Shown here in pieces: positions 19,800-58,058 of a DNA stretch of 64,000 bases (positions within the stretch are counted from its first letter, which is position 1; every line of letters begins with the position of its first letter). The notes under the pieces were generated by a model. That model worked only from the letters and a program-made list of their open reading frames with translations. It was not told the origin of the DNA and did no database searches. The stretch comes from Neodothiora populina. Taxonomy: Eukaryota. Location of the stretch: positions 1,364,001-1,428,000 of the forward strand of contig NW_027191404.1 of the NCBI RefSeq assembly GCF_041146345.1. The letters are read 5' to 3'. Both the position numbers and the translations under genes were made by a program.

Positions 19800-22700
19800 T
19801 CAACCGTAATTGAAAGGATTTCTGCAAAGCGGGCAGGTCGAGGCATTGCTGGTCTTGAACCACTTGAACAGACACGAGCTGTGAAACAGATTCTTGCAGG
19901 TCAAGCAGCGCTTGCTGGGTAATTGCTTGTCGCCGCTGATGATCGAGTAGCAGATCGCGCACTCGGTCTGGCCCTTGAGGGCGCCTGTGACGTTTTTGCG
20001 CCAGGTCGAGAGGCCGTCGATAAGGTTACCGTTCTGATTTTCGTGATAATGTCAGTTTCGTGGTTCTTTTTCTTTCTTGAGATGTTGTGGAGTGAAGGAC
20101 GACAGTCAGAAGCAGGGAGGGATGGAGAAAAGAAAACTTACACTGAACGTGATGACACCCTGGCAATTCCTCAGCCAACTCTGCCACTTTCGATCGTCCA
20201 CTGCAACTCGGTTGACGCCTTCGACCTTGGCGCCGCTGAGAGGATAGTCTTCCGGCAGCCGGACCACAATGGCCATGGTCTGTTCGTCGACGAGGTATCC
20301 CACGTTGACTTCCCTGCTGCGCATCGACACCTTGACAGTCAGATTCTCGAAGTCCGGATCGTCCTTGGCGGATGTCGCTGACCATTCCACTACTGAGCTC
20401 AGTGACTCGTTGATGATCACTGGGGAAATGTACTTGGCTGTCCATGATTCGACGGCGAGAGAGGTTTGACGCGCCTTGATGCCGAGGTAGTGTGACTTGG
20501 TCAGACTGGGTAGATTCGAGATGCATTGGTAGAACAAGTGCGCCAGCAGCCACTGCAGGCGCTTGTCCGCCTTGAGCTCGGTCTCGTAAGAGGCGTCGTC
20601 TTGCTCGCTGTAGTCGTAGTGTACAACGTCGTACTTGGACACATCGGCCGGCTTGCCGCGGGTATGCCCTAGCAGAGCATAAGTGAGATCTAGAAGATCA
20701 GGAAGGCTGTCTGCCTTCTTGAGACTTTCGATGTAGTCTGATTTGACTTTGTAGCTTGCGTTGCTGAAGTGGTCGAAGACAAGCTGCCAGCTGTATAGAT
20801 AGCCCTGCAGCTCGAGAGGGATCTCTTGCTTGAGAGCAGGGACGTCGATGTCGTCGAGCGCTGGGGCTTTCATGACCAGCGACAGCAGCTCGTCAGGTAG
20901 CTGTGCGGTCTTCTTCTCCAGCGCTGCATCGAATGAGATTTGCTCCTGGAGACTAGGGATGTAAGTGTGCAGGATGTTGAATGCCGTCTTCTGCAGGGGT
21001 CGTGATTCAGCATAGAGGAGAGGATAGAGCTCTTCGGCCTCTTCGAGCTCGACTCTCTGGAGCTTGCTCAACTCCTGTGCCAGTAGCTCAAAGGTCGCAG
21101 TGAGCGGGAGGTAGTCTGCGTCGGGCACGGTGTTGCTGGCTTTGAGCAGAGAAACCAGACCACGATATGCCGCATCCTCATGCTCTTTCCAGGATTCGAC
21201 AAGGTCGTCATTAGGGTCCTCACTATCCTTTAGAATTCTAAGTACGCCATATAGACGTAGCGCACCGTACATGAGCGCCATGCGACTGTGGTCGAGGGTT
21301 TCGGTTTCCACGTCCGCGAAGCCTTGAGACCAGGCACTGACGATGAAGTTCAAGATCTGGTTCCAATGTTCGCCATACATGTCGCTGATACCGGGGAGTA
21401 GAACAGATAGCAAGTTGCATGTCTCAGACTTGATGTTAGTCAGTATGGCTGGCTCCTCGAGCCATAGCAGTAGGTGCTTCATCAGGAAGATCATGCGCTG
21501 CTTAGCGATCAAGCCGTCGATGTGTCGATTCGCAAGAAGTGAATTGAGCATGACGAGCATGCTGAGCGCCTTTTCTGGCGGACTCTCCATGCTGAGACCG
21601 GTAAGGTCCGCAACGAGTTCGTTCGTCTGTCTGTCCAGCTTCTTGCTCGTGCTGAGGCTCTCGTGCAGCGCGGCGGCACATGCAGCAAACGGCATGACTT
21701 GCTTGGTCTTGTACAGCTGCAAGGCAAGATCTTCGTACTCTTGGACTTTGCCATGTGTGCTTCCATGCGCCGCTTGCAATTCGGCCAACGCATCACCCAG
21801 TGCCTCGGCACTGTGATATGCAAGAGGCCCAGCGCTCTTCGCATCCTCAAACAGAGCGTCGATTGCAAAACCAACGAACCCGTAGTTAGAAGATGAAATG
21901 TCGTCGTAGTTGAAGAAACAATCGGAGACAAGATGCACAATCTCGCCCTGCAATTTGCTTACAGGAATATCAAGTTCGTTGTCTGGTATGGAAGCCAACC
22001 CGGAAGGTCCACGCGCGTTCACACCGTCTTGCAATAGAGTGTTAGTGAGGGCGAAAAGCTTGAATAATTCAATCTGTGATTGAGGGCTGAGCTTTTGCAA
22101 CAAGTCTTGGTTGGAGAAGATCTTCGATGTATAGAGCGCAAAGCGCAAGGCCTGTGAGAAACCTTCCGCATCGCGGTGAATGGCTTTCGAAGCAGGTGAC
22201 TCTGCCGGCTGTACAAGGTAGACGCTACCACCTATCATGCTCGTGATTGCCTGAGATGCGGGAGGCGGTCGTGAGAGGAATGGTGATAATGATTCCTCCC
22301 AGATGATCAGGTCCGGAAGTGCCTGGTCTGCGATGTTTTCCTTCGCGTGTTCATCGTTTGTTTCATCGATCAACTTGGTGGCCATTTCGAGAACAGAGCT
22401 GATGGGAAGGGAGTCTGCAGAAACATGGTTGAGACTCTGGTGTACGACATCGAACAAGATAGCCTGAGACGAGCTCTTGTCTGCATCATCGACAATGCGC
22501 TTGCTCACGCTGGTTGCCTTCTGGGAAATGGTCTCATCCGGCGACTCCCGCAAATGCAGTAGATTTGGCAGAAGCTGGCCACCTTCGGGTTGAGCGATGA
22601 ATGCCTTCAAAGACTCTCTATTACCAGCAGAGATCTCATCCAGACCTTGTAACGCCGATGCTGCTCTGTCGGAAATTGACAACGAGGCTGTCAGATCAGC

Positions 22701-24809
22701 CAATATCGTAACGCTAGTGTCTGTCGTTGCCACACTTGGTGCGCGACGAAACATTCCCGCGACGAAGGCCCAATGCTCCCCTGAACCAATAGTTAATTCA
22801 TATTGCTGCTTCAGGAAATTCTGAATCTCCTGGTTTTGGGAGGCAAGATCTGCGACAGCTTGGCCTCGGGAAGCCGAAAGCAGTTTCCTGAGCGCGTCGA
22901 GCTTCTCAGGGGAGTCAGGGGCGTCGGTCAATGCGCTTGCGACATTGTTCCAAGCTTCTGTAAACGTGGCGTGTGTCTGGTAATGGTAGATTAGCGAGAA
23001 TAATTGACGTTGAGATGGCGAGAAGAGGAACTGAGGAAGCTCTTCGAGCACGAACGCGGAAATAATGCTGTGAGTTTCTTGGTCGCCAATAACCATCTCG
23101 CTGCAGTGGCGAACGAGCTCATCGACAACGGCAGCCGCACCATAGGGCTTTCCGTTGCGCGAACGCAACAGTTGAAAAGCTTCAAGTATGATCTGTCGAA
23201 GCGCAGTCTCGAAGACTTCACGAAGCGACGCAGGCAACTTGTCGTTGGCACGTAATAACTCGGATTGGAGGAGGGCCCATCTCTCGCCGGCTTGAGCTAC
23301 AGCAATCTGTGATTTGTCAAAGTCTTTCGAGCGCTCCGGAGCTGAAGTCTTCATATCCTCGATCAGGCCTGCAGCGTAGATTGACCACTTTTTCTCGAGT
23401 ATCGAAGGCACTTGACTGATCAAAGTCACCTTGGCTACTACCCATGCAGTCTTGGCACCGAAGACGGACCATTTAGATGTGTCTGGACAAGGTTTGAGAT
23501 ATTGCTGAACAACGGGCAATACCATTTCTTCGAGGATAGAATTCGACTCATCCTGAGAAAGTGTTGACTGAGCGATCAAGAGACTGACCACCCTGAAATA
23601 GGTGTCCCAAGCTGTGGATGCGTTGAAGCGCTCCTCTCTGGTGGAAAGACCATCGTGTAAAGAAGTGAGGAATTTTATAATCTCGGGACGTTGTTGGGGC
23701 CAGATTTCACTGGGGATCTTGGAGAATAGTAGCCACAGTGTGGTCCAGTATTCAGCCGATCCGGTTTGCGATCCCTTTTTCAAGCTCTGTCTCAGCCTTT
23801 CTACCGAAGCTTTCTTGCCGGTGTAGCTCGACGTCCACGCATGCGGGAATGCATCAGTTAGAGCGACTAAAGTTTGCAGCAGATCCAGGGCCGAGCCGGT
23901 CTGGTCGGCAGGTAGGGCCTTATCGATGTAAGCCTTGCTGACCCGCTTCAAGTTGGCCTGCACTGATGTCCGCTGCTTGGCCAGGTACGCTCTCAAGAGT
24001 CTATGCACATATCTTCGTACAGTGACGTCTTTGTAAGCAGCTAACTCCCAGATCTTGTCCTCGGCTACTACGGCAGTGTATTTGTCTTGCTGTTTCTCGG
24101 TCTCGTCGGACGGAAGGTCTCTCAAGAGATTGGTGATTACGGCCACGCTGGTCGCAATGACCCGTGAGTAGGTGGCCTGCGCATCCTCTGCGCTCACGAC
24201 TCTTTCATCGCTGAGACTCTGTACGGATTCATTCAAGATGGCGTCTCGACAGTAGTCCAGGATCTGCGGCTGGAAGGCCTTGCTGACACCCTGAAGCTTT
24301 TCCGATGAGTTGAAGACCTGTTTGAGAGCGTCCTGGGCGGCTTTTGCCACTCCTTTGTCTCCGTCTTGCGCACCAGCCAGCCACGGTCCAGAAATGGTCG
24401 CCATGTGTTTCGCTATCCTCTTTCCACACTTGGTCGCGATATGTCCCAGCACAACGTGAGCCAATTGGCGAACACGACGAGCGCTGTCAATGGACAGACG
24501 AGGGTATAGTTTGATCCAGGCATCCAGCACTGCCTCTTCTACGTGCTGCTCCGGAGCAGTGCCATAGTTCTGTAGGTCTTCCAGTGCTTTGGTCTTGGTG
24601 GTACTGTCTTTCTTGCTGAGGTTCTTGAAGGAGACGGCGACATTGGGGTCTGAGATTGTGGACAGATCTGGGGGTTCGGCGATCCAGGAAAGAGGGGACG
24701 AAGAGCCAAAGGACGATGATGCTCCTCCGAAACTTCCTCCAAATGATGCGCCAGCACCAAATGCTGCGCGGTTGCTGCTGGCCTGTGATCGGAACTGTTT
24801 CTTACTCAT
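19800..24809 (-). CDS. RKR1: E3 ubiquitin ligase listerin (ribosome quality control)
   Basis: Exons 24809-20142 and 20033-19800; intron GTAAGT...CAG. N-terminal NLSKKDSTTKTKALEDL, then HEAT-like body and RWD region (LPEDYPL). Exon 2 carries the RING ECAICYSIISGDKQLPSKRCLTCKNLFHSSCLFKWFKTSNASTCPLCR. Also called LTN1. Confidence 0.96.
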
Positions 24810-25218
24810 CTTGTAATCGTTTTAGTGGGGTTTGGAGTGTTCGTTAAGGTATTCAGACATGAGAGTCAAGATGCAAGGCAGACATGAGAATATATAGCAA
24901 TCGATCTATACAGCGAAGACTCCAAAAGACACACAGAGCGACAAGCTAAATGCAGGCGAAGGGGCAGTCGGTTTATTGCAATAATATCTTACCTGTATAC
25001 ACGGAAGAAAGATGTGGTGTGTTTTGTCCAATCACCTACGTCACTTTCGATTGACCCGCACTAGTCCCCTTCGGGCAATGTCAAGTGGCTGCCATCACCA
25101 TCTGCCATCTGCAGGTCTTGGCGATCCGCGATTCTCGAGCACATTATCAATAAACGACATCTTAGGCCCTGCCTCTTTTCTCTGCTTCATCGCGCCTCGC
25201 TAGGTGCGCATCGCCACA

Positions 25219-33877: not shown

Positions 33878-34329
33878 CAGCTCGGCCGGTGGAACCGGCA
33901 GGCAACACTCCAGGGCTGACATTTCTTGACTCAATTTACTGTACCTGTAATTACCTTTGTAATAATCACAACACAAGAAACAAAAGAACAATCGGAAACC
34001 GGTGAATCTGATCCGCCGAGCCTCCGACACTTACAAGTGACTGCACTGGTAGATTGGGAGAATGATTGATGATTGTTTGAGGCTACAAAAGACAAAGGTG
34101 TATACCATCCAAGCTAAGATACCTTACCTTACACAACACCTCACTGTCTGTCTGTCTGTCTCCAGGTCAGACTTTCACGTGACAAACACAATAAACTCAT
34201 CTCCGGGGTTTCAGTCAAGAGGGAACTGGACTATATATCCTGCCAAACGACCAGCACTGCTCCATATGAGATAATCACACAACTACCATAATCTCTGCCA
34301 GTGCACCTGCTGCTGCACCCTGTCCCACC

Positions 34330-36363
34330 ATGACCGGAGAGAAGCGACCCTTCCCCGACGATGGACTTGCCCACGACGACACGAAGCGCGTGCGCTCCAA
34401 CAACCCATCGCCTGTCCCTCCAGCCAACGATGACATTGAAAGAAAGAAGCGAGAGGCTGCCGAGCGCATCGCCGCCATCAAGGCCAAAATGGCCAACGCC
34501 ACGGGACAGGGACAGTCTCCAAAAGTGAACGCTCCTTCTCCTTCGCCAGTCACTGCTGCAAGGTCAGCTGCTCAATCAGCCGCCGATCGCATTGCTGCCA
34601 TGAAGGCCAGAATGTCCAACGGCCCAGGACAATCAGCATCAGCAGCAGTAGCGACTGCGCCTGCTCCATCATCATCATCATCATCATCATCTTCTTCTGC
34701 AGCAACGTCAGGTGCTATCTCGGCCGCAGAACGTATTGCTGCCATGAAGGCGAGGATAAACGGCCAAGCGGCGCCCGCACCAGCTGCACCAGCACAGGCC
34801 GCCTCCCTGCCCTCTTCGTCTGCGCCAGACAACAACAAGCAAGCAGAGATCCAGGCTCGACTTCTTGCTATGAGATCCAGGCTCCAAGCCCCCGCCGCCA
34901 GTCCTTCGCCGCCTCCACCCTCGGACATCAATGAGCGCATGGCCGCCGCCAAGGCCAAAGCCCTCGAAATCTCCCAGCAGCGAAGAGGCCCCGCGCCTTT
35001 GCCTCCCGTCAGAGAAGATTCTATTCTCAAATCAAGAGGTGGTCTGAATGTCGGCATACATCCGTCTCTGCTTCAGCAACACGATCAAGGCCCCAGCCGA
35101 GGCCCGCAGAAGGGCAAGAGAGGACAGGAAAACAGACAGAAATCGAATCCCTACTTGGACGATGCCACCAACCCCGCCGAGGTCGGCGCCGCTCGAAAAG
35201 CCGATCCTTCCTACGATGCCAGCCTGACAACCTCGACCACTGCCGGAAAGACTCGCAAGTCACGACAGCTGCTGTTCAACCAGAAGGGTAAATTCATCGC
35301 CCAGGCCAATGCTTTGCGCCAGCAGGAAAAGCTCGAGGAGATGCGCCTGCGCATGCAAGAGGAGTCGAGAAAGAAGGCTATCGAAGAAGCGACGGAAAAA
35401 TCCTACCTCGTCCCGGCTCCCCCTGAGGTCGAGTGGTGGGATGAAGCTCTACTTGCCGAGCCCAACTACGACACTTTGGATGTCAACAACGCCGCCACAC
35501 TCAAGTTCGATGTCGTCACTCCCTACGTACAGCACCCCGTCTTGCTTGCCGCCCCTCAAGAGTCCCGCATGCCCGCTGCCAAGCCCATGTTCCTCACAAA
35601 GGAAGAGCAGAAGAAAGTGCGCCGTCAACGTCGCATGGCCAATCACAAGGAAGAGCAAGCCAAGATCCGTCTCGGTCTCAGGGCACCCCCACCACCAAAA
35701 GTCAAGAAATCAAATCTCATGCGTGTGCTGGGGCAAGAAGCTGTCAAGGACCCCACTGCAGTCGAGGCTCGCGTGAATCGAGAGATCGCCCAGCGCGCCG
35801 CAGATCACGAAGCCACCAACGATGAACGAGCCCTCACCAAAGAACAGCGCCACGAGAAACTTGCCCAGCAGCAAGAGGCAGATGCCGCAAAGGGCGTCTA
35901 TGTTTGCGTCTTCCGCATCGATAACCTCAGCTATGGCAAACATCGCTTCCAGGTTTCCAAGAATGCCGAACAGAACAATCTCACCGGCATGACCATCTTC
36001 AACCCGAAGCTTAACCTTGTCATTGTTGAAGGCGGAGCTCACTCGATCAATGCTTACAAGAAACTAATGCTCAACCGTATCCGCTGGACGGAGAATGCCA
36101 TGCCCACCTCTGTGCGCGAAGGCAACAAAGAGGCCGAGGCCGAATTCTTGAGGGCTACGGACGAGAGGGGCGTACTGAAGGACTTGGGTGGCAACAGATG
36201 TCAACTGGTGTTTGAGGGTGAGGAGAGGGAAAAGATGTTCAAGAGATGGTTCCCGTACCGTGTCTGTGAGACTGACGGAGAGGCCAAGGACATGTTGAGC
36301 CGGTACAAGATGGAAAACATGTGGACACTCGCACAGAGTATGGAGGGAGACGCATTTGCCTGA
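34330..36363 (+). CDS. PRP3: U4/U6 snRNP protein Prp3
   Basis: Intronless 677 aa. Motifs FNQKGKFI, PEVEWWD, YVQHP, KIRLGLRAPPPPKVKKSNLMRVL, AVKDPTAVEARV, and a C-terminal domain with LVIVEGG. Confidence 0.95.
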   Translation: MTGEKRPFPDDGLAHDDTKRVRSNNPSPVPPANDDIERKKREAAERIAAIKAKMANATGQGQSPKVNAPSPSPVTAARSAAQSAADRIAAMKARMSNGPGQSASAAVATAPAPSSSSSSSSSSAATSGAISAAERIAAMKARINGQAAPAPAAPAQAASLPSSSAPDNNKQAEIQARLLAMRSRLQAPAASPSPPPPSDINERMAAAKAKALEISQQRRGPAPLPPVREDSILKSRGGLNVGIHPSLLQQHDQGPSRGPQKGKRGQENRQKSNPYLDDATNPAEVGAARKADPSYDASLTTSTTAGKTRKSRQLLFNQKGKFIAQANALRQQEKLEEMRLRMQEESRKKAIEEATEKSYLVPAPPEVEWWDEALLAEPNYDTLDVNNAATLKFDVVTPYVQHPVLLAAPQESRMPAAKPMFLTKEEQKKVRRQRRMANHKEEQAKIRLGLRAPPPPKVKKSNLMRVLGQEAVKDPTAVEARVNREIAQRAADHEATNDERALTKEQRHEKLAQQQEADAAKGVYVCVFRIDNLSYGKHRFQVSKNAEQNNLTGMTIFNPKLNLVIVEGGAHSINAYKKLMLNRIRWTENAMPTSVREGNKEAEAEFLRATDERGVLKDLGGNRCQLVFEGEEREKMFKRWFPYRVCETDGEAKDMLSRYKMENMWTLAQSMEGDAFA

Positions 36364-43150: not shown

Positions 43151-46100
43151 TTACTCGAAGGCCTTGTCTCCAAGATCGACGCGACCAACGCTCATGACCT
43201 CTCTCATATCTTCCTGCTCATCAGAGCTGAGGTTCAATCCACCAGCGCCACCTTCGGCTTCTCTTCTCTCTCTGGCCTGACCGGCAAGTCTCATGGCGAC
43301 ACGCTTGAAGTAGTCGCTCATGCTTCTCTTGGGACCGGGGCCGAGCTTCTCACCTTCGCTAGCCATGTACTTGTCGAACACAGCACTTTCCTCGTCGACG
43401 ACAGAGAACAAGGACAAGAACGCTGCTTCAGCGGCCAGCTTGATGGGGATGACCATATCGCGCACGCCACCGAAGACGGCGGGCACGAGGATGTTCAGGA
43501 ATGGTCGTGTGATGGTATTGTGGTCTTCGCGGGAGACGGTGCGGACAACGACAAGCGCTAGGCGGCGAGTATCGATTGACTGTCCTGGTGCGATTGAGTT
43601 TGCAAGACCTTCGATGATCGGCTTGACGGTCTCCTGTGACTTGTCTGAGGATGGTGCGAGGAGGTATTTGCCAGCTGCCAATATACTGTTGTCGCGGATG
43701 GCGGGGCTGGCGTTGCTCATACCCTGGACCAAAGTCTCCTGGAGCTCGGTGGGAAATTTCTCCGTGAGGGCTTCAGGAGATTCGACAAGGATACTATTGA
43801 GGGCAAGCACAGAGGGGTAGGTGAACTCTGGTGAGAGAACACGATGTCTGTAACAAAATGAGATTAGTGTTCAAACAGTGATCAACGAAAACGAAGATAC
43901 GTACCTGATCAAGCCTGCAGCGATATCCTCGGGTAAGACCTTGATAAGCGCACCGAGCAACCTGGCATTTGTGACGACCATGGCCTCGTCTTCTTCTCCA
44001 GTCTCTGAGTCGATGAGGCCTAGAATGGCGTTTCTTGAAGCCTCGTTCATGGTCGCGCCAGCTTGGCTTACCAAGTTGTAGAGGGCCTTAATCATTGCAG
44101 TTCTGACACCAGAATCAGCTGTCTTCGATCCGGTGACCAACTCGGCGATCAGAGGGTCAATTCTTGGGGTGAGCTTGATGAGGGTGCCCAAAGCCTTGGC
44201 TGCACGGATGCGCAGGATCTCACTCGAGTTGTCGCCAAGAGCCTTTGTGAACGTGCGTTGCAATTGCGGCAGGAAGGGCTTGAGGAAGAGAGGAATCTTT
44301 TCAAGAAGATTGTTAAGTGCATAGAGGATTGCCGACTTGACCTCGACTGAACGCTCGGATACAACACGAATAAGAGGTCCAGTGATTTGGGTGACGGATG
44401 GCTTAAGCGCATCAGCACTGGTGCGGTCAATGATGTCCGATATTGCGAGCGCAGCCTGGGTTCGCTGTTCTGCGGAGCCATTCATCAAACCTTGCAAGAA
44501 GATAGGCAAGATGGCGTTGATGCCCTTTGGCAAGCAGAAACCGGGCAAGTTGTGGCCTGCAACACCGACTTGGTTGAGTGTCTGGCGAGTGGAGATAACC
44601 AAAGACTCCATCTCCTCCTTGCGTAGACGCTGCGTGAGTGCCGTGAGGGCAGTATGTGCTGCCTTGACGACATCAGTGTCGCTGTCGTCGAACGAAATGA
44701 GCAGGGCCCTGATGAGATCTGGGTAGTAGCGCGACATGTCGACATCCGAGTTCTTGAAAAAGTTGGCGAGATGGAGATCCGCAGTACCGCGTCTTCTGTG
44801 ATCGTCATGCTTGACCATAGCGAGCATTGTGCTCATCGTGGTGTTCAGACCGTCATACTCATCGATTGACAGCAGGATAGCATCGAAAGAGCCCTCCAAC
44901 TCGGCCTTGGTGTCTACATTCTTCGCACCCAGGATGCTATCCATGATTGTGTTGAGGATGTTGGGTAATCTCCTTGACATTGCTCCACTGGCAACTTGTG
45001 CGAGTGAGGCAAGAGCTCTAGCATTGAATGGACTGACAGGAGGAGTGAGAAGAGTGGGCAGGAGGTTAGGCAAGATGATGTTGGATCTTGTCTGTTCGGT
45101 AAGCAGAGTAAGAAGGGCAGAGAGAGCATTCTCGGCATCGTCGTCCGAGCGCAGGAGATTGAGAAGGTACGGTAGAACTTGATCGACAGCCCTCTTGCCA
45201 AGGATCTTCTGCAGTGAGTCAAATGCCTCCGCTGCTGCCTCTCTAACGTCGTTGTCCGAATCGACAAGTGCAGTGCGCACAACTGAAATAAGAGTCTTCT
45301 CGTATTCCTCAAGTGCATCGGGTGAAGCCGAAGCGATGAGCTCGCGCAATGCAATACAGATACCTTGCTTAGCATCTGCATCGGTTGATGTCACCAAGCC
45401 CTCCTCGAGAGTGGGTAGCAAAGTGGCCAGGACACCTTCTCCAGCCTTTCTGATGAGCTCGCCCAGTGCGTTACCAGCAATCTCCTTCTGTTCCATGTTG
45501 GAACTAGCGAGGCGACGGATAAGCATCTGGGTGAGAGTGGGAACAAGCTCACGCAAAGTACGAGGCGAAGCAACAAGAGCCTTCCAGACATTAATGGATG
45601 CTGTACGGACGAGACCAGAAGTATCGCAACGGCAGATGTAAAGTGCAGAGAGAACCTTGTTACGCTTCTCTTCTCCAAGTACCTCAAGTAGAGACTGTCC
45701 AGCTTCGTTGGCGCCTTCCTCGGCTTCTTCTTGTTCAGGTGTACCGGTAATACCAGTGAGGTTGAAGAGGAGATCTCCAACCAATTCGACTGAACTGAGA
45801 CGAATACGGTAGCTGTCATCTCCGAGACCACGCTCGAGCTCAGGAAGCAGAAGGTCAATTGCACGGGTGGCGAAGTTCTTGACCAAGAGACGACCGGCTC
45901 GGAGAGCTGTCTCACGAATAGACTCGACGTCATCCGCCAGACCCGCCAAGATCGGTGGAATGATCTTGCTAAGGTAGTTGGAAAAGCTGTTGCCGAAACA
46001 AGCGGGCAAGAAGATGAACAGCGACATGAAACCTTCGCGAACAGATGGCTTGGAGCTGGTAGCGTTTTGGAGGATGGTTGGGAGAGTTTCTTCCAGACGG

Positions 46101-49100
46101 CCAGTACCAAGACCGGCGAGAACCTCGGAAAGAGCTTGTGCCGAACCAAGTCTGTCACCAGCACCAGTGTCGGACTTGAGGGTCGACATAAGACTTGGGA
46201 TGAGGTCGGGCAGAGCGTCCTCGCCAAGTTTCTCAATAAGTGAACCCAGAGCCTTGGAGGAGGTAGCACGCGTCGTTGGCACTGGATCAACGACGGCAAC
46301 TCTGAGGCCGGCAACAAGGATTGGTAGATGAACTATAAGATCCTTACGATCTGTCAGATGTGCCAAGCTACCAATAATTTGTGCTGACTTCCTCTTAGTC
46401 GCAGAGCGATCACCCAGACCACGCTCCAGGACACGAACGACAAGGGCAAGGGAAGGTGCATCAAGGTAGTGGATGAAATTGACCTTGATCAGAGCGTCCA
46501 AGGCATCGTCGGTGTACTTGGTTGCGTCGCTCAATGCCTTAAGCAAGATGCCAACTTGACTCTTGATCTCTGGGTTCTCGATGACTTCACCGAAGCGTTG
46601 CAAACTTCGGTTCGCAGACAGTCTGACTTCCTTGTGGGTGTCGTTGAGGACGTCTGTGAGAGGAGGAATGATATCGGGCAAGCTGATCGCCAATTGTTGG
46701 GGAGCCAAATAGGCCATGGCACCTAGAGAGTCGCAGGCACCCTTCTTACTCCGCCATTGCTGCTCGTCAAGACCATCCAGCAGGGTAGGGAGAACCTGCT
46801 TCACGCCGTATGCACTGAGAGAAGAGAAGCAAGTCTTAGCTGCATCAAGACATGCCTCGCGTACATCAGCGCTGCTGTCGCCGAAACCAACAAGAAGTTG
46901 TGGTACGATCTGAATGATGTAAGGCTCGAAAATACGACCAAGGATGAGAGACAGTAGCTCATAAGCGAGGAAAGCGCCTTGTCTCTTGTTCGGGTCCTTC
47001 TTTTCTTCGGTGGCTCCTGCTAGAGACGACATGATGCGGAACTCGCGAAGCGACGAAATGCCTCTGCCCTTTACGATACCGGCAAGACCGTATGCGGCAC
47101 CCCTACGAGTGGCGTACTTCTTGCCCAGTAGGAGCTCTTCCATCATTTGCTGTATGTACTGGGATGCCTCCTTGCTTGAGGCCTGCACAAGAGGTGGCAG
47201 ACATTGTGACACGGCATATTGTACAGATTCAGAAGGCGTGCTCAAGGTCGACAACAGGCGTTGGACGACCTTGGGTACTCTGCTGTCTCCAGCTGGCAAA
47301 TGACGGGCGAGAGCCCCATACAGAATCACCACCGCCTCGTTGACCAGGTCTTGAGCCTGCGATCCGGTGTCGGGTCCCTCGAGAGTGCTCTCGCAAAGCT
47401 TCATCAGAGGCTCGACTTGGACCTTACCCTTGGAGTTGATGATGGTGGTAGCTGCATCAACCATGGTGTCTCGGACAGTGCCGTTCTTGTCGCCAAGAGG
47501 GCCATCAGAGATCAGGAATTGCATGAAAGGTACGAGCTGCTCGCTCTGGAAGGTTGGCGTGAGTTCCTTGAAAGTCAAAGCAATACCATGCCTGGATTGC
47601 CAAGGATCCTCCAAGCTCATCTTGATAGGCATGCCGTACTTGTCGCGTTGTAGGGTTCTTGGCTTAGCGTCTTCCTTGTATGTATCTTGCAGCTGGGCGA
47701 GAACATCCGGAGATACATCTGGATGAGCTAGTACAACAGCAGCAATGGAACGTGCCGCAGCACGGCGAAGCTGCACGTCGTCCGAACGTAGGTACTCCAT
47801 CAGACGGGCAGCGGAGTCGGGTGAAGTCTTCAGGTCGTTCTCCTCCCAAATCGCTGCAGCCAGATCACGGTTCTCATCAACATCATCGTGCTTTGCCAAC
47901 CAAATCTCATCGTAGAAATCATGATCGGCAAGATCGAAAGACTCATCAATTGACTGAAGCACGACTGTTCGCACAGAGACATCAGGGACGATCGCGCCTT
48001 TCACAACCACGGCGACTTCGGCCTCGGTTGCGTTGGGTGCGACGCTTCTAGAAATGTCGGCAAAGCAGTCCTTCAGCTCCAAGAAGTGCTGCTGATAAGC
48101 CTGAAGCGAAGAGATGACGCAGGAAAGCAATTCATTTCGAGCAAGCCTGGGCTCAGCACAGATTTCGGCGTGGAAAGATAGAACCTCAATGGCAAGTACA
48201 ATCTGCTCATCAGCTTCGTCACCGGTGCGTCCAATTCCGCCATTTTCCAGTACAAGGAAGGTAAGCGGTAGGATATAGCTGAGTGTCACGGCGTCCAAAG
48301 GTCTTTGTTCTCCAAGGAATCGGAGGCGATAGAGTACACGTGTAACGAGCTCGCCGAGCGACTCTTCTTGTAGGGACTCGGGTAGTGTTGTCAGACCAGC
48401 TGCGCGTAGAGTGGCTACACCGACAAACTTCCGCATGGGACCAAGCCTTGACGAAGTCTTCTGAGCACAATCAAGGTAAGCAAGAGTGGCAGAATCTCCA
48501 AGAACAAGTCCAGCACCCGCATTGATGACATCAAAGAGGCGCGCAGTAGTGGTTGTGAACCAGCTCTCAGCCTCTGTTGGAGGACCGTTCACGAGGCCAG
48601 TAACCATACCAATTCCGCGTCTTAGCTTCGCGACCACACCGGCTACATCCTTTCGAATGACAGACTCCTTTTCGAGCTGTGCCTTGACCTTGGCTTGCTC
48701 CTCAGGTGTAAGTTTCTTGGTGGTACCCTTCTTAGCGGCGATGGATGCTCTGAGCTCCTGTTCCCATTTCAAGTCGTTGTAGTCCTTGCTGTTCTTGCTT
48801 GGTGCTTGTGCTTGTGTCTGTCCAGCCAGAACATCAACAAATGCAGTTCCCTCGGGCGTGCGGAAGATGGCGGCCTCCTCGGGCCCGATGTCTTTCAAGA
48901 GAGACGGGTCTAGGTCGCTGCAGATCTGGTGTAGTATGATTGGTAAGAGCGCTGTTGGCGCAACAAACGCTAGATCAGCTGCAGCGTTAAACGCGGCTTT
49001 TTGAAAAGCAGCGATGGAGACAAGAGACTGGTCTTCGGTCACGCGGGTAATCTGAGCGATGCACCCAGATGAAGCTCTCGTCGCAAGCTCGCCTGGGTCC

Positions 49101-51383
49101 GTGCCTGTCCTGAGACAAGTATCGATCCAAGAAGCTTTTGGTATTATATCGTTCCGGCACACAACGAGAAGGTCCACAAGCTGACTATCAAGCACGTCCT
49201 GCTCGATCTCAACGTCCTCTTCTTCAAGCTCTTCCTTGGTAAGAGAGATAGCACGAATGACTTTTTGCAGGTCGTGACGGCCGGTCTTTGAGGCTACAGC
49301 AGGGCTTTCCTTTGTCTCGAGTTCAACCTCAGAACACCATTGGTACAGGCCCTTGATGATGGTTTCGGCAGTCTGCTTTGGCTGGTCCAGGTAAACTCGA
49401 GTCAACGACTTGGTTGCTTCCTTCCTGGTCTTGGCGGGAACGTTTGCTGCGACGGCAGAATAGATGAAACCTTGTGACCAAGCTTGTGACTTGGGACTGG
49501 GAGCAGATATGAGACCGGAAGCACTCGCGGACAAAGCTCGTATGAACCAGAGCAAGTCTTCTTCTGCGGTGAATTTCGTGTACACGCGAGAGTTAAGCAG
49601 GAAGGAGGGCTTGGGTTTGAGGGTACTGGAACTATCCAACACGGATGCTTTCTTGATTGTCGCCGCATTCTTCAAGTCACTCAAATCTGCGAATTTGGTA
49701 AGGCAAAGAGCAGTCACCGCACAGGCCACAGGCGCTAAGCCACTCTGCGTTGCAGCCACGGGATTTGCGACAACTTCGTTGAAGATGTCTATCAACTTGC
49801 CAATGGTCGCATCTATGAAAGGCAGGACGTTAGGGGCTCGGAGCTTCTTCTCCGGCAATTGCCAGAATATGTCGGCAAGCCCGAAGGCCCAGAGTTTGCG
49901 AATGGGCAAGCGCTTCTCGCCAAGACCCTTGACAAAAGCGTCCGTAGTCTCTTTTCCTGGTGCAATGGACTGCTTTAGACCCCAGCGCAGATGTTTTGCA
50001 ATTGCAGATATTTCAGCAGAAGCGACAGGTTCGTTGGCTTCCTTGACAGCCATGACAGCGAGACCTTGGGGAATAGAAAGCGCAAGCTTCTCAGTAGTGT
50101 GCACAGAGGAAAGCATCTGGGCGAAGATAACTCTGTGATCGGCTGAGGGAAGCTTTCCTTGCTTCAAGGGAGCCAGGATGTCCTCGGCAGCCTTCTCTAC
50201 CAGCTTTGCGCTGTCATCGTCGTGACCCGAACGTTCGGCAACGGCAGTGAATGTACCGAGAGCACCTGAGCGGATGGTTGCGTTGGTAGATTTGGCGCTT
50301 GCGCTCAAGGGCTTCAGGAAATTGTTGGCGAGTATATCGGCAAGATCAATGTCCAGATCGATTGTTTCGATCATTGGGGCGATCAGGTCGTCCAGTACGA
50401 CCTCGGGAGCTCTCAGCAATGCTTTTTCGATGGCAGGCACGATGTCCTTCTTCAAGTCGTCGAAGGTCACGAAAGACTCGAAATAGTCGGACATGCCAGC
50501 TGCAATGAATCTGGGTAGCTTTGCCTTCGAACCGATGATTTCGCGGAGGTAGAAGGTGTTGTAGTCGGATTTGCGAGCCTCTAGCAGAGGTCTGCATTTC
50601 TCAAGGCGGGTGCTGACACCTGCAATGATGCCGAGGAGGAGGATGTTCTGCGGTACTGGGATGGATGCCTTTGCGGTGAGAGCAGTGACGCTCTGGTTCA
50701 AGGCCTCTTCTCCATTTTCTGACTGGAGCAACTTCCTGAATCCCCGCCGCGTGACACGCAGCTGAGTCTGCTTTGGACTTGATCGAGGCGTCGAACCCTC
50801 AAAGGTGTATGTGAGCCGCACCAAGGCATGGACAATCTTCAATCCCCATGATTCCCACAACTTCTTGTTCAATGCGAACTGCTGTAAGAAAAGCGAGCCC
50901 CATCGGATCAGCACCAGTGCGCTGCCAGGCGCAATTGCTGTCTTCTTTGATTCTGCTTCGTATCTGGCCAGGAAGGGAGAGAGTTTGTCCTCTGCATCGG
51001 GAGCGGCGAGGATAGTAGTAAGACAGTCCTCGGCCGTGTGTCTCGAATTAGTGTCGACATAGAGAGCGTGGGTCTCGAAGATTATGTTCAGGATATCGGG
51101 TAATTGGTCTGTCGAGATGTCTGTCACATAGAAAAATGTATCAAATCAGTTGAGTGTTCTTCAATCAAGAGATAGACCACATTGGCTTTCCACAGCTACT
51201 AGTCTGCTGGCATGGAACGGGCTATTATCTACATCTCACTACCAATTCCATACCTTTGTTCGTGATTTTCTCGCGCAAGTTGTGCAACTCAGCAGCCCGT
51301 TTTTTGCTCGAGTTGGACAACAGAAATTCACGGAGGTGTACCACATCTAGCGATTTCTCGCCGTTAGTAACTCCATCCGCCAT
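43151..51383 (-). CDS. GCN1: Translational activator Gcn1 (HEAT repeats)
   Basis: Exons 51383-51254, 51120-43905, 43847-43151. Motifs RRGAAYGLAG, WRSKKGACDSLGAMAY, HYLDAPSLAL, QITGPLIRVVSER, KPFLPQLQRTF. Confidence 0.97.
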
Positions 51384-51665: not shown

Positions 51666-54600
51666 ATGGTCGCCAAAAAGAAGAAATCCAAGCCAGCTGC
51701 AAACCCGGCTCGTGGTTTTGCAACTACAAGTATCGTCTCTAAGTCGAGAGTAGATTCCGAGAACGCCACTGTTGATACCACTGCCATCAACACTGCCGCG
51801 GAGAACTCAGGTGTAGCTTCCCCGGCACTCGCTTCCAATGTTGCTACGCTCGCATCTTCTGATAAGAAAGCAAGCGTGCCCGCAAAGGAAGCTGCAGCAA
51901 AAGAGCTTCATGAACTAAATCCTGAAGAGCTCGAGGCTCAGCTGAATCTTTCTGATCTGCAGAATCTAGTGGAACAACAAGGTCCTAAAGTGAAGAAGGA
52001 GTCTTCCCGCCAGGTGTCGCGCTTGCAGACTGATCGACGTGTCCTACGTTCGCAAGCCGATTTACTGACTGTGAGGGAATGGCTGCCAGATGAACTCATG
52101 CAACAAATCATTGATTTGGCTTTAGAAGAAGAGCGTACAATTGCTGCCAACAGCAACCCCACCGCGCTCAAACGCTTCAGCGAGGATGAACTGCTATCGA
52201 GAACATGGCAGTTGCACCTTGCTCTGATTGATCTCGACATACCCGGGGAACAGACGCAAAAGGTTCTTCAATATATATTAGCAAATCCGCCCGCGGATGA
52301 AGCTGGTAACTTCATCTGGGCCCTTCCTGAAGCTCTTGATTGGCTTGCCATACATTGTGAGTCTGGTCAGCTGCTCGGTTATGATACTCAAAAGCCCAAG
52401 CCTCAATCTACGATACCAGGTAAGTTGTTACATCGAGCATATTCGGTCCACGAATGCTTTTCCTTTTTTCGTCCGGTATCTGATTCAACCAGAGACGGCA
52501 AGTGCAGAAGATGATGACGCGCGTGAGGACTGGAAGAAGGCTAAGCAGAGGGAAGCCGCTACAAAGCCTGAACCATCCTCGGCCGCTCCTGTCATTGACG
52601 ACATACAAGTCAGCGATGCAGATAGTGACATGGACCCCGATGAGATGATTTCAACATACCTTCGCACCAAGGCGAGGCTGTTTGATCGTAGTCCAGATCT
52701 CGTAACCGAGCCTCTTATTAAGGGAAACAAGAAATCGAAGAAGTTGCAGACGAGACCCACTACTGTCAACGCGAAAGCAACGCCTGGCGAGGCCAAATTA
52801 CAACAAAGGCTCAAAAAGCTAGAGTCTGATGCTCTATTCGATCAATATACAGCCGATCTCAAATGGCTGGAACAGAGAAATGAACTTATGCAGGAACGAT
52901 CTGAAAGAAGGCGCCTGCGTCTTGACGAGGAACGCAAAGACACACCGCAGTCTGCGAGTTCGCCAAGTGGACACCCGTTGGACAGGCCTGCTGAGAGTAG
53001 CGCGACTGACGATATAATGGCCGAGGCTGAACGAGAGGCTCAAAAACTGTTGGCTGAGATGGAAGAAGACGACGGAATATCTGGCATGTTCGGCGAGCCT
53101 ACCGAATCTACTTCACGAGAAGACGGCGCCCCTGGAGACACGGGTGCCACGAATATCAGTGTAAGTATCCGGAACTTTGGCAAAATCACCGGCATCAGTC
53201 CTCGCAGAACTTTCGAAGAAGCATGTCGATCACGAGATTCTGGTGCCAAAGTATACTTCAAATTGGTCTCGCCAACGACATACTCGGCACGACACTCGGT
53301 GACTGTGACATGGTCAAAAGACCAGGATGCTGTAGACCCTGCTCTCATAGATGGGGTCAAGGTTCAGTCCTCCACGCGCAAGACTATCGTCACGATGACG
53401 GGTATTGCGTGCCCTGACACATCTCAAAGCGAAGCGTATGTCTCGACGGTGTCCTTGTTTCTTCTATTCTCTAGCTCGCCGAAGGAGGAGCGAGTTGCTC
53501 TGCGCTTGCCGCCAGCTTTCAGGGACTTATGGCAAGAATTCATCGACGCTCGCCGTGAGAAACGCGACTCCGCCGATAGGGATACCGTGAAGTCGCTTAG
53601 AGAGCTGATTCGTCTCCAGACAGAGGAAGAAGCGGATGAGGATATTGTTCTTACCGCAGGGTTCAGGAATCGCCAGAAAGGTCTCAGTGGTGTTTCTACC
53701 CCTGTAGAGGGTGAGAAGAAAGACGGGCGGCCAGCTTTAGAGGAGTCGCAGGCATTGAAAGATATGTGGCTACGCAAAGCTTCGACGCCGTCTTATCAGA
53801 GCATGCTTCAAAGCAGGATGAACCTTCCTATGTACCAATTCAGGGATGTCGCCCTTGACATCATAGAGAAGAATCCGGTCACTATTTTGTGTGGTGAGAC
53901 CGGTTGTGGCAAATCGACTCAGATGCCTGCATTCATTCTTGAGCACGAGTTGTCTCGCGGCCGGCCCTGTAAGGTCTATTGCACCGAGCCCAGACGTATT
54001 TCTGCCATCTCTTTGGCTCAACGTGTGAGCGAAGAGATGGGAGATGACAAAGGTGCAGTCGGCACCTCAAGATCACTGGTCGGCTATTCTATTCGGCTTG
54101 AGTCCCATACAACCGCGCAGACCCGCCTCGTCTACGCCACTGTCGGTATTGTTCTTCGCATGCTCGAGTCTGCCAAGGGTATCGACGATGTGACACATCT
54201 CGTCATCGATGAAATCCATGAGCGGAGCATCGACACCGATTTCCTTCTCATTGTCTTGCAATCGCTGTTGCTTCGCCGTCCCGATCTTAAGGTCGTATTG
54301 ATGAGTGCTACAGTGGACGCACAGCGTTTCTCAAGCTACTTGGGCAACGCTCCAATTGTCACCGTTCCTGGTCGCACGTTTCCGGTACAAGCAAAATTCC
54401 TCGAAGATGCAATCGAAGTCACCGGCCACACTATAGATACAGGCAACAAGCGCCCTGCCATGGAGGATGACGAGGATGACATTGACCGCACTGTAGATGG
54501 AGCGAAGGAGGGTTCCAAGCAGTTGTCTGGTTACAGTGCCAAAACGCGCGCAACATTGGCCGATTTTGACGAATATGGGATTGACTACGAACTGATCGTA

Positions 54601-56220
54601 AAACTTCTTGCACAAGTTGCTTACAACCCTACGTATACTCAGTTCAGCCAAGCCATCTTGGTCTTTCTGCCAGGTCTTGCAGAGATCAGGCAATTGCACG
54701 ACGCTTTGCTGGGACATCCCTCTTTTGCACAAGGCTGGCTGTTCTATCCGCTTCACTCAACTTTCTCCAGCGAAGATCAACAAGCAGCTTTCAATGTTCC
54801 GCCAAGAGGCATGCGAAAGATTGTACTAGCCACTAACATAGCTGAAACTGGTATCACAATCCCTGATGTGACCTGCGTGATTGATACAGGCAAACACAAG
54901 GAGATGCGATTTGACGAGAGACGCCAGTTGTCACGACTGATACAATCATTCATATCTCGAGCGAATGCAAAGCAGCGTCGTGGACGTGCTGGACGTGTCC
55001 AAGAGGGCATCTGCTTTCATTTATTCACCAAGTATCGCCATGACAACATCATGGCAGAGTCACAGACCCCCGAGATGCTTCGTCTGTCGCTACAAGACTT
55101 AGTCATGCGAGTCAAGATCTGCAAGCTTGGTGACATTGAGCATGCATTGTCACAGGCTCTGGATCCTCCTTCACTGAAGAACATCAGACGGGCTATCGAT
55201 GCCTTGATTGACGTCGACGCACTGACCCAGAACGAGGAATTGACACCGCTTGGACAACAGCTCGCGAAACTACCGCTTGATGCACAATTGGGAAAGCTGA
55301 TCCTTCTCGCCTCTATTTTCAACTGTGCCGACTTTGCTCTTACGACGGCTGCGATTCTGTCTTCTAAATCACCATTCCTGTCTCCCATGAATGCTAAGAA
55401 GCAAGCAGATACAGTTCGTCTTGGCTACAAGCGAGGCAACTCGGACCTTCTGACTGCTTACAATGCATATCTCACCTGGAAGAAGATCTGCCAAACCCCA
55501 GGCCAGTCAGAGTTTCAGTTCTGCAAGAAGAACTTCCTGTCGCCACAGAATCTCTCCAACATTGAAGACCTGAAAGGCCAACTCCTATCGTCTCTATCAG
55601 AGGCTGGTTTTGTCCATCTCAGCCCGGCGGAGAGGCAAGCGCTTAGTCGAGTCCGCGGATCATCCTCTGGTCGCGGAACTCGCAATTTCGTACAAGTCCC
55701 TGCAGGATGGGATCAAAACACAGAGAACGATCTTCTCCTGAATTCGGTCACTGCATGGTCTTTCTACCCGAAAGTCTTGCAGCGCGATGGCAAGGGCTGG
55801 CGTAACATTGGCAACAACCAATCCATCTCCTTACATCCCACATCTGTCAACAAGGGCAATAATTCTCTGGACGCGAAATTGCTGTCTTTTTACAGCATCA
55901 TGCAGAGCGCATCACGCTTCACGAATGCACAGGAGACTAGTCCAGTCGAGGCCATGGCGCTGGTATTACTCGCAGGCGACGCTCGCTTCGATGTCTATAG
56001 CGGCGTCATCGTCATCGACGGTAACAGGCTACGATTCAAGGTCTCCAGCTGGCGCGCCATGGTTGCACTGAAGATGTTGAGGGCACGAATGCGGGATATA
56101 CTCGCCAAGAGCATGAAAAATCCCGGTCGTGTGATGGGTCCACGACAGAGAGAATGGATGGACGTATTTGTGAGCATGTTTGAGCGTGTAGATAAAGAGA
56201 GGCGATTGGGCAAAGCATAA
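51666..56220 (+). CDS. DEAH/RHA helicase, DHX29-like
   Basis: Exons 51666-52419 and 52493-56220. Motifs GETGCGKSTQ, DEIHERS, MSAT, LATNIAETGITI, QRRGRAGRV, plus an HA2/OB tail. N-terminal KKKSKPAANPARGFATTS and a dsRBD-like segment fit fungal DHX29-like proteins. Confidence 0.85.
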
Positions 56221-57461: not shown

Positions 57462-58058
57462 TCATTCCGCGAGCTCTTTCCAAGGATCCTCGATGAAACT
57501 GGGCATAAAGTACGCCATATCCCCTCTTGCATTTTGCACGCCTCGTCTCGACTTCGCCAATTCTTCACGGCTGGGCATGCCCTGAGGCCATGATTCGGCT
57601 CCTGCACCGCCGTAGTACTCGATCGCTGGTGTTGCTAGGACTGTCTCTGCAGCAAGAGGTTGCGACGGCACTACAGCTGGGGGCGCCTGCGAAGTGACAC
57701 TCTCTCCCCAGGCAATGTAGTCTGCCAGTCCAAGTGGAGGCCCGCCCTGCTTCTTCTTGCCCTTTGTCTTCTTCTTCTCGTCCCGCACATCTGTCTCGAC
57801 TTGGGTGATTTCGCCATTTGCATCGACATCGACATCGACGTCGGCACCTTGAGCTTGCACCTTACTGCGCACACCCAGAGCTGTCGTGTTCGCGCCACTT
57901 CCACTGGGCTGCTGGGCGCTGTCATCGTCGCGACTCTGGCCATCAACAAAGGTGTCGGCGTCATGGTTATATTTGCGTCGCTTGCTGTTGGGCTGAGCAC
58001 CAAAGCCTGTAAAGCCCATCGCTGCTGCGATCTCGGGGTCTATCTCCGAGTCATCCAT
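57462..58058 (-). CDS. Uncharacterised 198-aa low-complexity protein with MGFxGFG and YFxPSxxEDPW motifs
   Basis: Clean ATG-to-TGA ORF with protein-like composition. It has NLS-like KRRK and KKKTKGKKK, and two conserved-looking terminal motifs. Confidence 0.8.
   Translation of the reverse strand: MDDSEIDPEIAAAMGFTGFGAQPNSKRRKYNHDADTFVDGQSRDDDSAQQPSGSGANTTALGVRSKVQAQGADVDVDVDANGEITQVETDVRDEKKKTKGKKKQGGPPLGLADYIAWGESVTSQAPPAVVPSQPLAAETVLATPAIEYYGGAGAESWPQGMPSREELAKSRRGVQNARGDMAYFMPSFIEDPWKELAE

Follow-up and report, generated by a model that had tools for sequence, protein, structure and literature searches.

A conserved, mostly disordered fungal protein combines an MPLKIP-type core with a peptide of spliceosome proteins and is a candidate Dbr1 adaptor

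Neodothiora populina encodes a 198-residue protein that carries conserved elements at both ends of a largely unconserved chain: near the N-terminus, a short peptide that also occurs in three human spliceosome proteins, and near the C-terminus, a core of the MPLKIP type. We put at about 60% the probability that this protein is a Dbr1 adaptor of the MPLKIP/TTDN1/SICKLE type whose N-terminal module is unlike the human one. As such, it would act as a conserved, intrinsically disordered nuclear adaptor.

Results

The gene lies in a window of 64,000 nucleotides, the whole stretch of DNA analysed here. The list of open reading frames and their translations places the whole coding sequence at 57462..58058 on the minus strand, a 198-codon frame that runs from ATG to TGA (198 amino acids plus the stop, single exon). 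Relatives of the protein align with it over its full length, from M1 to the C-terminus, which argues that the gene is intronless. The gene is real, widely conserved and single-exon.

Frames for the FRQ clock protein (13690-16344), listerin/Ltn1 (20106-24821) and GCN1 (43151-51145), all on the minus strand, together with the other Pfam matches, mark the window as part of an ordinary Pezizomycotina chromosome. The same window holds a gene for Prp3 of the U4/U6 snRNP (34270-36363, plus strand), and a 1312-codon frame for a DEAH-box helicase (52282-56220, plus strand) is convergent with the adaptor-candidate gene; we take it that these two lie close to that gene on the fungal chromosome by coincidence.

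The protein is acidic (pI 4.6), and small, polar or charged residues make up 77% of it. An AF2 model built on a 150-sequence alignment has a mean pLDDT of 63 and a pTM of 0.23, with short helices only at aa 8-13, 111-120 and 164-171; the Atlas model has a pLDDT of 0.49. These values fit the original prediction of a mostly disordered protein with ordered-looking ends. Both of its motifs were found at the predicted sites on the minus strand, IAAAMGFTGFG (I10-G20) encoded at 58031-57999 and AYFMPSFIEDPWKEL (A182-L196) at 57515-57471, and the NLS-like basic patches that it described exist as well (KRRK, aa 26-29, and KKKTKGKKK, aa 95-103).

Conservation was assessed in an alignment of 150 relatives (A2), to which the conservation figures given below refer. 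This alignment revealed three conserved islands, at aa 6-39, aa 55-64 and aa 164-196. Eight residues are invariant (F16, F19, G20, R28, G173, F188, P192 and W193) while aa 65-166 are unconserved, and the motifs thus exceed what chance would give. The idea that the two motifs are the only ordered-looking parts therefore needs to be amended: both are present, but they are not the sole constrained parts, since there is a third island and since the C-terminal island extends over about aa 164-196.

The third island, G-A-N-x3-L-G-x-R, is picked out by the conservation profile at aa 55-64 (57867..57896, minus strand). Its G55, N57 and G62 are conserved at 87%, 93% and 85%, respectively, A, L61 and R64 complete its consensus, and neither Pfam nor the PDB yielded a match to it. 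Within the unconserved stretch that follows, AF2 predicts a helix, ADYIAWGESV (aa 111-120; 57699..57728, minus strand), as a block with a pLDDT of about 80; the corresponding GLADYIAWGN stretch is conserved in close relatives only (alignment A1).

The protein had been described as an orphan, a description that does not survive database searching. An exhaustive search of cluster representatives returned 312 relatives at E<=1e-3, 141 of them at E<=1e-10; a word-indexed search at E<=0.01 found, apart from the query itself, 28 relatives; and a profile made from 150 members found 137 at E<=1e-3, having scored only the 7999 candidates that shared the most words, with the best 120 of the 137 listed. 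Among the matches listed, the named relatives belong only to Dothideomycetes, Lecanoromycetes, Sareomycetes and Vezdaeales, those in Dothideomycetes including Delphinella, Aureobasidium, Alternaria, Cladosporium, Cenococcum and Elsinoe. Class was looked up for Delphinella (Dothideomycetes), Bacidia (Lecanoromycetes), Sarea (Sareomycetes) and Vezdaea; the relatives from Trapelia and Lambiella we take to be Lecanoromycetes, and the assignment of the named Dothideomycetes other than Delphinella is in part likewise assumed. The matches listed include no named representative of Eurotiomycetes, Sordariomycetes, Leotiomycetes, yeasts or basidiomycetes, although a word-filtered search does not prove absence. 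One would expect a general splicing factor to be more widely spread, and so the narrow range of the named relatives counts against the adaptor reading. One clear family member (P0103) carries the source label Quercus suber and is probably fungal DNA within a plant assembly.

The joint occurrence of both motifs in relatives, which had been proposed as a check, held in essentially all of 166 proteins counted. Near the N-terminus, [ML]GFxxF is present in 165 of these, starting at residue 10-19 in most, and the single relative without it has an insertion within the motif. Near the C-terminus, [ED][DN]PW is present in 152, most often at a distance of 7-13 residues from the chain end, and 11 more carry one-residue variants (QDPW, GDPW, NPW, YPW, MDPW or DPDPW), such that x-P-W is kept in 163 of the 166. 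The three proteins that lack the C-terminal motif comprise one that is truncated, one with a divergent tail and one that ends in DPV. In the relative P0014, agreement with the family ends after RRGVKND and the MPLKIP core is lost, which looks like a frameshift or an error in the gene model rather than a natural variant. The 166 proteins had been retrieved by similarity to the whole query; many of them, however, matched in two separate stretches, so that each end would have sufficed to find them.

The conservation profile places the C-terminal island at aa 164-196 (EELAKSRRGVQNARGDMAYFMPSFIEDPWKEL; 57471..57569, minus strand), with the consensus L-x-x-x-R-x-G-V-x-N-x-x-G-D-x-x-Y-F-x-P-S-F-x-E-D-P-W-x-x-L; with a pLDDT of 81-82, it is the best-modelled part of the AF2 prediction. 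The alignment to the Pfam family PF15502 locates within it the MPLKIP core, S-F-I-E-D-P-W (aa 187-193; 57480..57500, minus strand), which is encoded by the codons AGT TTC ATC GAG GAT CCT TGG and ends five residues before the C-terminus. Conservation is 97% at S187, 92% at E190, 97% at D191 and 100% at F188, P192 and W193. Where the core as published for SICKLE, S-[M]-[L/A]-E-D-P-W, has Met and Leu/Ala, the fungal protein has Phe and Ile, and the position of M144, which is mutated in patients, is an invariant Phe in the fungal family.

The original prediction that this motif is of the MPLKIP type was borne out by PF15502, whose positions 22-37 (of 64) align to aa 182-197 at an E-value of 1.3e-4, with 22.5 bits as against a gathering cut-off of 28.9; the match thus falls below the cut-off, and the core that carries it is about 16 residues long. 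Of 29 relatives, 26 were matched at the same profile positions, the best of them at an E-value of 1.7e-6, and so were, at positions of about 22-37, 25 of 26 relatives in a second, partly overlapping set, in which only P0241 from Bacidia gigantensis exceeds the cut-off (30.2 bits). A precomputed PF15502 label is attached to 18 of the best 120 profile matches listed. By alignment, then, the C-terminal island carries an MPLKIP core in which the Glu-Asp pair (E190-D191) is kept.

Searches for structural counterparts of this island were less informative. No solved structure among the PDB sequences matches it, a 49-residue C-terminal piece having returned a single TetR chain at an E-value of 1.4. 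The Atlas feature search with aa 150-198 gave no informative named cluster; an Atlas structure row for the same residues is a cluster from Ascomycota, with PF15502 in 14% of its members. We treat both as leads only.

Published work confirms binding of DBR1 by the MPLKIP core in human and in Arabidopsis. For human TTDN1, CR1-2 is reported to be necessary and sufficient for DBR1 binding, to which E146 and D147 are important while the effect of M144V is modest (10.1101/2022.11.03.515106); binding is direct, and raises catalytic efficiency 19-fold and lowers Km 33-fold (PMC10470207). For Arabidopsis SICKLE, a preprint describes the core as needed for DBR1 binding and lariat turnover: its replacement by seven alanines abolishes DBR1 binding in a two-hybrid assay, weakens co-immunoprecipitation, and yields a mutant that fails to complement lariat accumulation. 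E146 and D147 of TTDN1 correspond to E190 and D191 of the fungal protein, and in these alignments the residues that matter in the human and plant cores are conserved in the fungal family.

According to the same SICKLE preprint, InterPro family IPR028265 includes fungal proteins with the MPLKIP core. The proposal of an unrecognised fungal tether was to this extent overstated, given the size of the family and the fungal proteins already grouped in that InterPro entry, per the preprint. A 2025 review of Dbr1 names AQR, DRN1, SIC and TTDN1 as partners and, in the portion available, no fungal partner of the MPLKIP type.

We surveyed Dbr1 itself in fungi. None of the 21 long frames of the window scanned with Pfam is a Dbr1 gene, and PF05011 had matches in 0 of 14 control genomes. 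Dbr1 was found by means of a degenerate pattern for metal site V in metagenome contigs (117 loci); a Pezizomycotina-type Dbr1 frame from one of these (L021), used as a query, gave 5376 matches at E<=1e-30, the best 120 of which were listed, and 51 fungal Dbr1 sequences were aligned (A4). Both Dbr1 and a member of the adaptor-candidate family are present in Aureobasidium pullulans, Clohesyomyces aquaticus, Sarea resinae, Cenococcum geophilum and Patellaria atrata.

Two features of these enzymes were seen in passing. The Dbr1 enzymes retrieved from Dothideomycetes and lichen fungi (P0274, P0322, P0256 and alignment A4) have GCGHG at metal motif I, a long acidic insert with repeated units resembling N-x-DEIDLDMDD, and an RGG-rich tail. 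The metagenome Dbr1 gene at L021:1754-3508 (plus strand) has a 57-base intron inside metal motif I (EGC / GHG); the intron is in frame and free of stops, and as a result the stop-to-stop frame reads through it.

The N-terminal island spans aa 6-39 (57942..58043, minus strand) and comprises IDPEIAAAMGFTGFG, KRRKY and D-x-x-V-D. Across the 150 relatives its consensus is I-D-P-x-I-A-A-A-M-G-F-x-x-F-G, a short variable spacer, K-R-R-K-[FY], and D-x-x-V-D. In the conservation profile, its MGFTGFG core (aa 14-20; 57999..58019, minus strand), the only such motif within an open frame in the window, is conserved at 95% at M14, 99% at G15 and 100% at F16, F19 and G20. In KRRK (aa 26-29; 57972..57983, minus strand), a putative nuclear localisation signal, R28 is invariant and K29 is conserved at 98%.

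To identify proteins that share this island, we searched 177,635 distinct PDB sequences with a profile (A3) built from 25 N-terminal stretches only. Exactly three PDB chains matched at E<=10, all of them human spliceosome proteins: ZMAT2, in its C-terminal tail (aa 177-197, E 2.4e-5); WDR70, in its N-terminal tail (aa 16-35, E 0.0054); and SNRNP27K, at the start of its conserved domain (aa 98-116, E 0.65). Three matches in all, each to a splicing factor, is far from what chance would lead one to expect. A whole-family profile run against the PDB matched WDR70 (aa 13-35, E 0.0025) and ZMAT2 (aa 177-196, E 0.31) and, besides these N-motif matches, only TBP, through poly-Q; in an Atlas feature search with aa 1-45, a WDR70 cluster ranked second (0.79), which we treat as a lead only. 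The PDB entries that contain WDR70 are C complexes.

These results agree with the occurrence of MGFxxFG in SNRNP27 and ZMAT2 given in the original prediction, and add WDR70 to it. The fungal protein has the features of the shared peptide: an acidic lead, A-A-x-M-G-F-x-x-F-[GD], basic residues, and a position near the chain end. In the human proteins, too, an acidic lead precedes A-A-x-MGF-[STA]-[GS]-F-[GD] and basic residues follow it, and in ZMAT2 and WDR70 the peptide lies at a chain terminus, as it does in the fungal protein; the rest of these proteins differs, with a zinc finger in ZMAT2, WD40 repeats in WDR70, an RS region and an M141 loop in SNRNP27K, and an MPLKIP core in none. Judged by sequence, the N-terminal island represents the same short peptide that ZMAT2/Snu23 has in its C-terminal tail, WDR70 in its N-terminal tail and SNRNP27K where its conserved domain starts.

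Two further readings of the N-terminal motif were tried and rejected. A G-patch had no Pfam match; a UBA domain had none either, and before the motif AF2 places only the helix at aa 8-13, with no three-helix bundle. The scans behind these statements covered the query, 29 relatives and 26 relatives at E-values up to 10, 1 or 0.5.

In human B and pre-B structures, as far as the accessible descriptions go, SNU23/ZMAT2 is modelled at aa 16-36, aa 45-75, the zinc finger and aa 118-133, without the MGF segment; the part of SNRNP27K shown in the structure paper is aa 137-153, again with the MGF segment outside it. The same descriptions lend no support to docking of an MGF peptide to the spliceosome, whether at the Sm ring or at Prp8. 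We found no docking site for the segment in the literature searched, and the strings MGFSGFG, MGFTGFG, MGFASFD, MGFxxFG and MGFxGFG were absent from that literature.

That the MGF segment lies outside the modelled parts of ZMAT2 and SNRNP27K favours an alternative in which the protein is an MPLKIP-type Dbr1 partner but its N-terminal motif is no spliceosome tether. The motif might, for example, serve nuclear import together with KRRK, protein turnover, or binding that takes place off assembled spliceosomes, in snRNP biogenesis or recycling. KRRK does follow directly after the motif and is equally conserved, and Arabidopsis SIC promotes DBR1 nuclear accumulation, according to a review. By contrast, the three PDB proteins in which the motif recurs are all components of the spliceosome, from three different stages, and a generic signal for import or turnover should also occur in PDB proteins outside splicing. 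We consider this alternative unlikely, and its several examples no less so.

A second alternative is that both motifs are short peptides that arose by convergence, and that the protein has some other nuclear role unrelated to Dbr1, for instance through a degenerate, UBA-like ubiquitin-binding element or in mitosis, the role first proposed for MPLKIP. Both matches are indeed short and below Pfam cut-offs, and the only usage of "MGF motif" that we found in print, in the accessible parts of the sources, refers to a loop of UBA domains. However, the permissive scans of the query and both sets of relatives gave no UBA or G-patch match, AF2 returns a six-residue helix in place of a three-helix bundle, and the exact residues that bind DBR1 in human and plant proteins are the most conserved in the fungal family. 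Convergence, in either of these forms, is in our judgement distinctly improbable.

Pfam SNRNP27 (PF08648, formerly anticipated as a match to the N-terminal segment) did give weak matches to N-island residues (aa ~6-42), in 11 relatives out of 29 and in 8 out of 26, the latter at 12-18 bits. The best of all these matches has 18.2 bits as against a cut-off of 23.1, and they cover profile positions 1-37 of 56; the 198-residue protein itself had none at E<=10. Weak as they are, the relatives' matches add to the link between the N-terminal peptide and spliceosome proteins. They are also what speaks for a diverged fungal SNRNP27K-like tri-snRNP protein with an acquired MPLKIP-like tail, a reading that we hold to be very improbable, as the matches stop at position 37 and so lack the half with the M141 loop, the 198-residue protein has no RS region, and it does not match PF08648.

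Discussion

The reading that we prefer, that of a fungal Dbr1 adaptor of the MPLKIP/TTDN1/SICKLE type, assigns a role to each part of the protein. By analogy with human and Arabidopsis, the C-terminal island would bind Dbr1, the enzyme that debranches lariats, with stabilisation or activation of the enzyme as a possible further effect. The N-terminal island and the adjacent KRRK would take the Dbr1 complex into the nucleus, and could bring it onto the spliceosome or onto a spliceosome-associated or travelling factor. In doing so, the N-terminal island would stand in for the aromatic-rich region of TTDN1 that reaches the Aquarius/XAB2 intron-binding complex, and the unconserved middle would be a flexible linker.

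The closest counterpart is human TTDN1/MPLKIP, which is likewise small and mostly disordered, with a conserved C-terminal region and the core x-S-x-x-E-D-P-W that binds DBR1 in human. The tether logic would also be the same, an N-terminal module combined with a C-terminal Dbr1 handle. The two proteins differ in three respects: firstly, the aromatic-rich, prion-like N-terminal region, which in TTDN1 binds AQR and XAB2 (10.1101/2022.11.03.515106), is absent from the fungal protein, in which only 13 of 198 residues are aromatic, 8 of them within the terminal islands and only 5 between aa 40 and 160; secondly, the fungal protein instead has the MGFxxFG-KRRK module and the GANxxxLGxR island; thirdly, it has Phe in place of Met144 and a Pfam score below the cut-off. 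The aromatic-rich region is reported for human TTDN1 only and is not shared by SIC; it is a lineage-specific feature and not one that defines the family. The same study describes conservation of TTDN1 as limited to metazoans (10.1101/2022.11.03.515106).

Arabidopsis SICKLE is similar in that it, too, is disordered and lineage-specific, with the MPLKIP core as its one element that is widely shared. It differs in being a proline-rich protein of 35 kDa, and the accessible part of its description, on which this comparison is based, mentions no MGF motif. Drn1/CWF19L1 resembles the fungal protein as an accessory protein that binds Dbr1, in yeast and human, but it is folded and is described as a non-catalytic Dbr1 homologue; its sequence is unrelated to the fungal family, to which none of our searches matched it.

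Several elements of this picture were already known, namely the Dbr1 handle, the tether logic and, per the SICKLE preprint, the core's occurrence among fungal members of a database family. What is new is the delineation of a large fungal family, its architecture of three islands, and the connection of the peptide near its N-terminus with ZMAT2, WDR70 and SNRNP27K.

A bolder extension concerns the receptor for this peptide. MGFxxFG with its basic residues might be a single docking peptide, and one site might serve SNRNP27K, ZMAT2, WDR70 and the fungal, Dbr1-carrying TTDN1 analogue in turn; we regard this as speculative and, on balance, improbable. The succession that it would imply, with SNRNP27K at the tri-snRNP/pre-B stage, ZMAT2 in B, WDR70 in C, and Dbr1 last, is correspondingly doubtful. 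If there were such a common site, its occupancy would set when the debranching enzyme arrives as the splicing cycle ends, and the receptor could be sought with the fungal protein as a ready-made bait.

SICKLE extended the partnership of MPLKIP and Dbr1 to plants, and the family described here would, on the adaptor reading, supply the fungal case. It is carried by genetically tractable moulds such as Aureobasidium. The family also joins three human spliceosome proteins through a short peptide, and so offers a testable lead to what this peptide does. Finally, if the reading is true, the Dbr1 handle would be ancient, and the targeting module would have been swapped between lineages.
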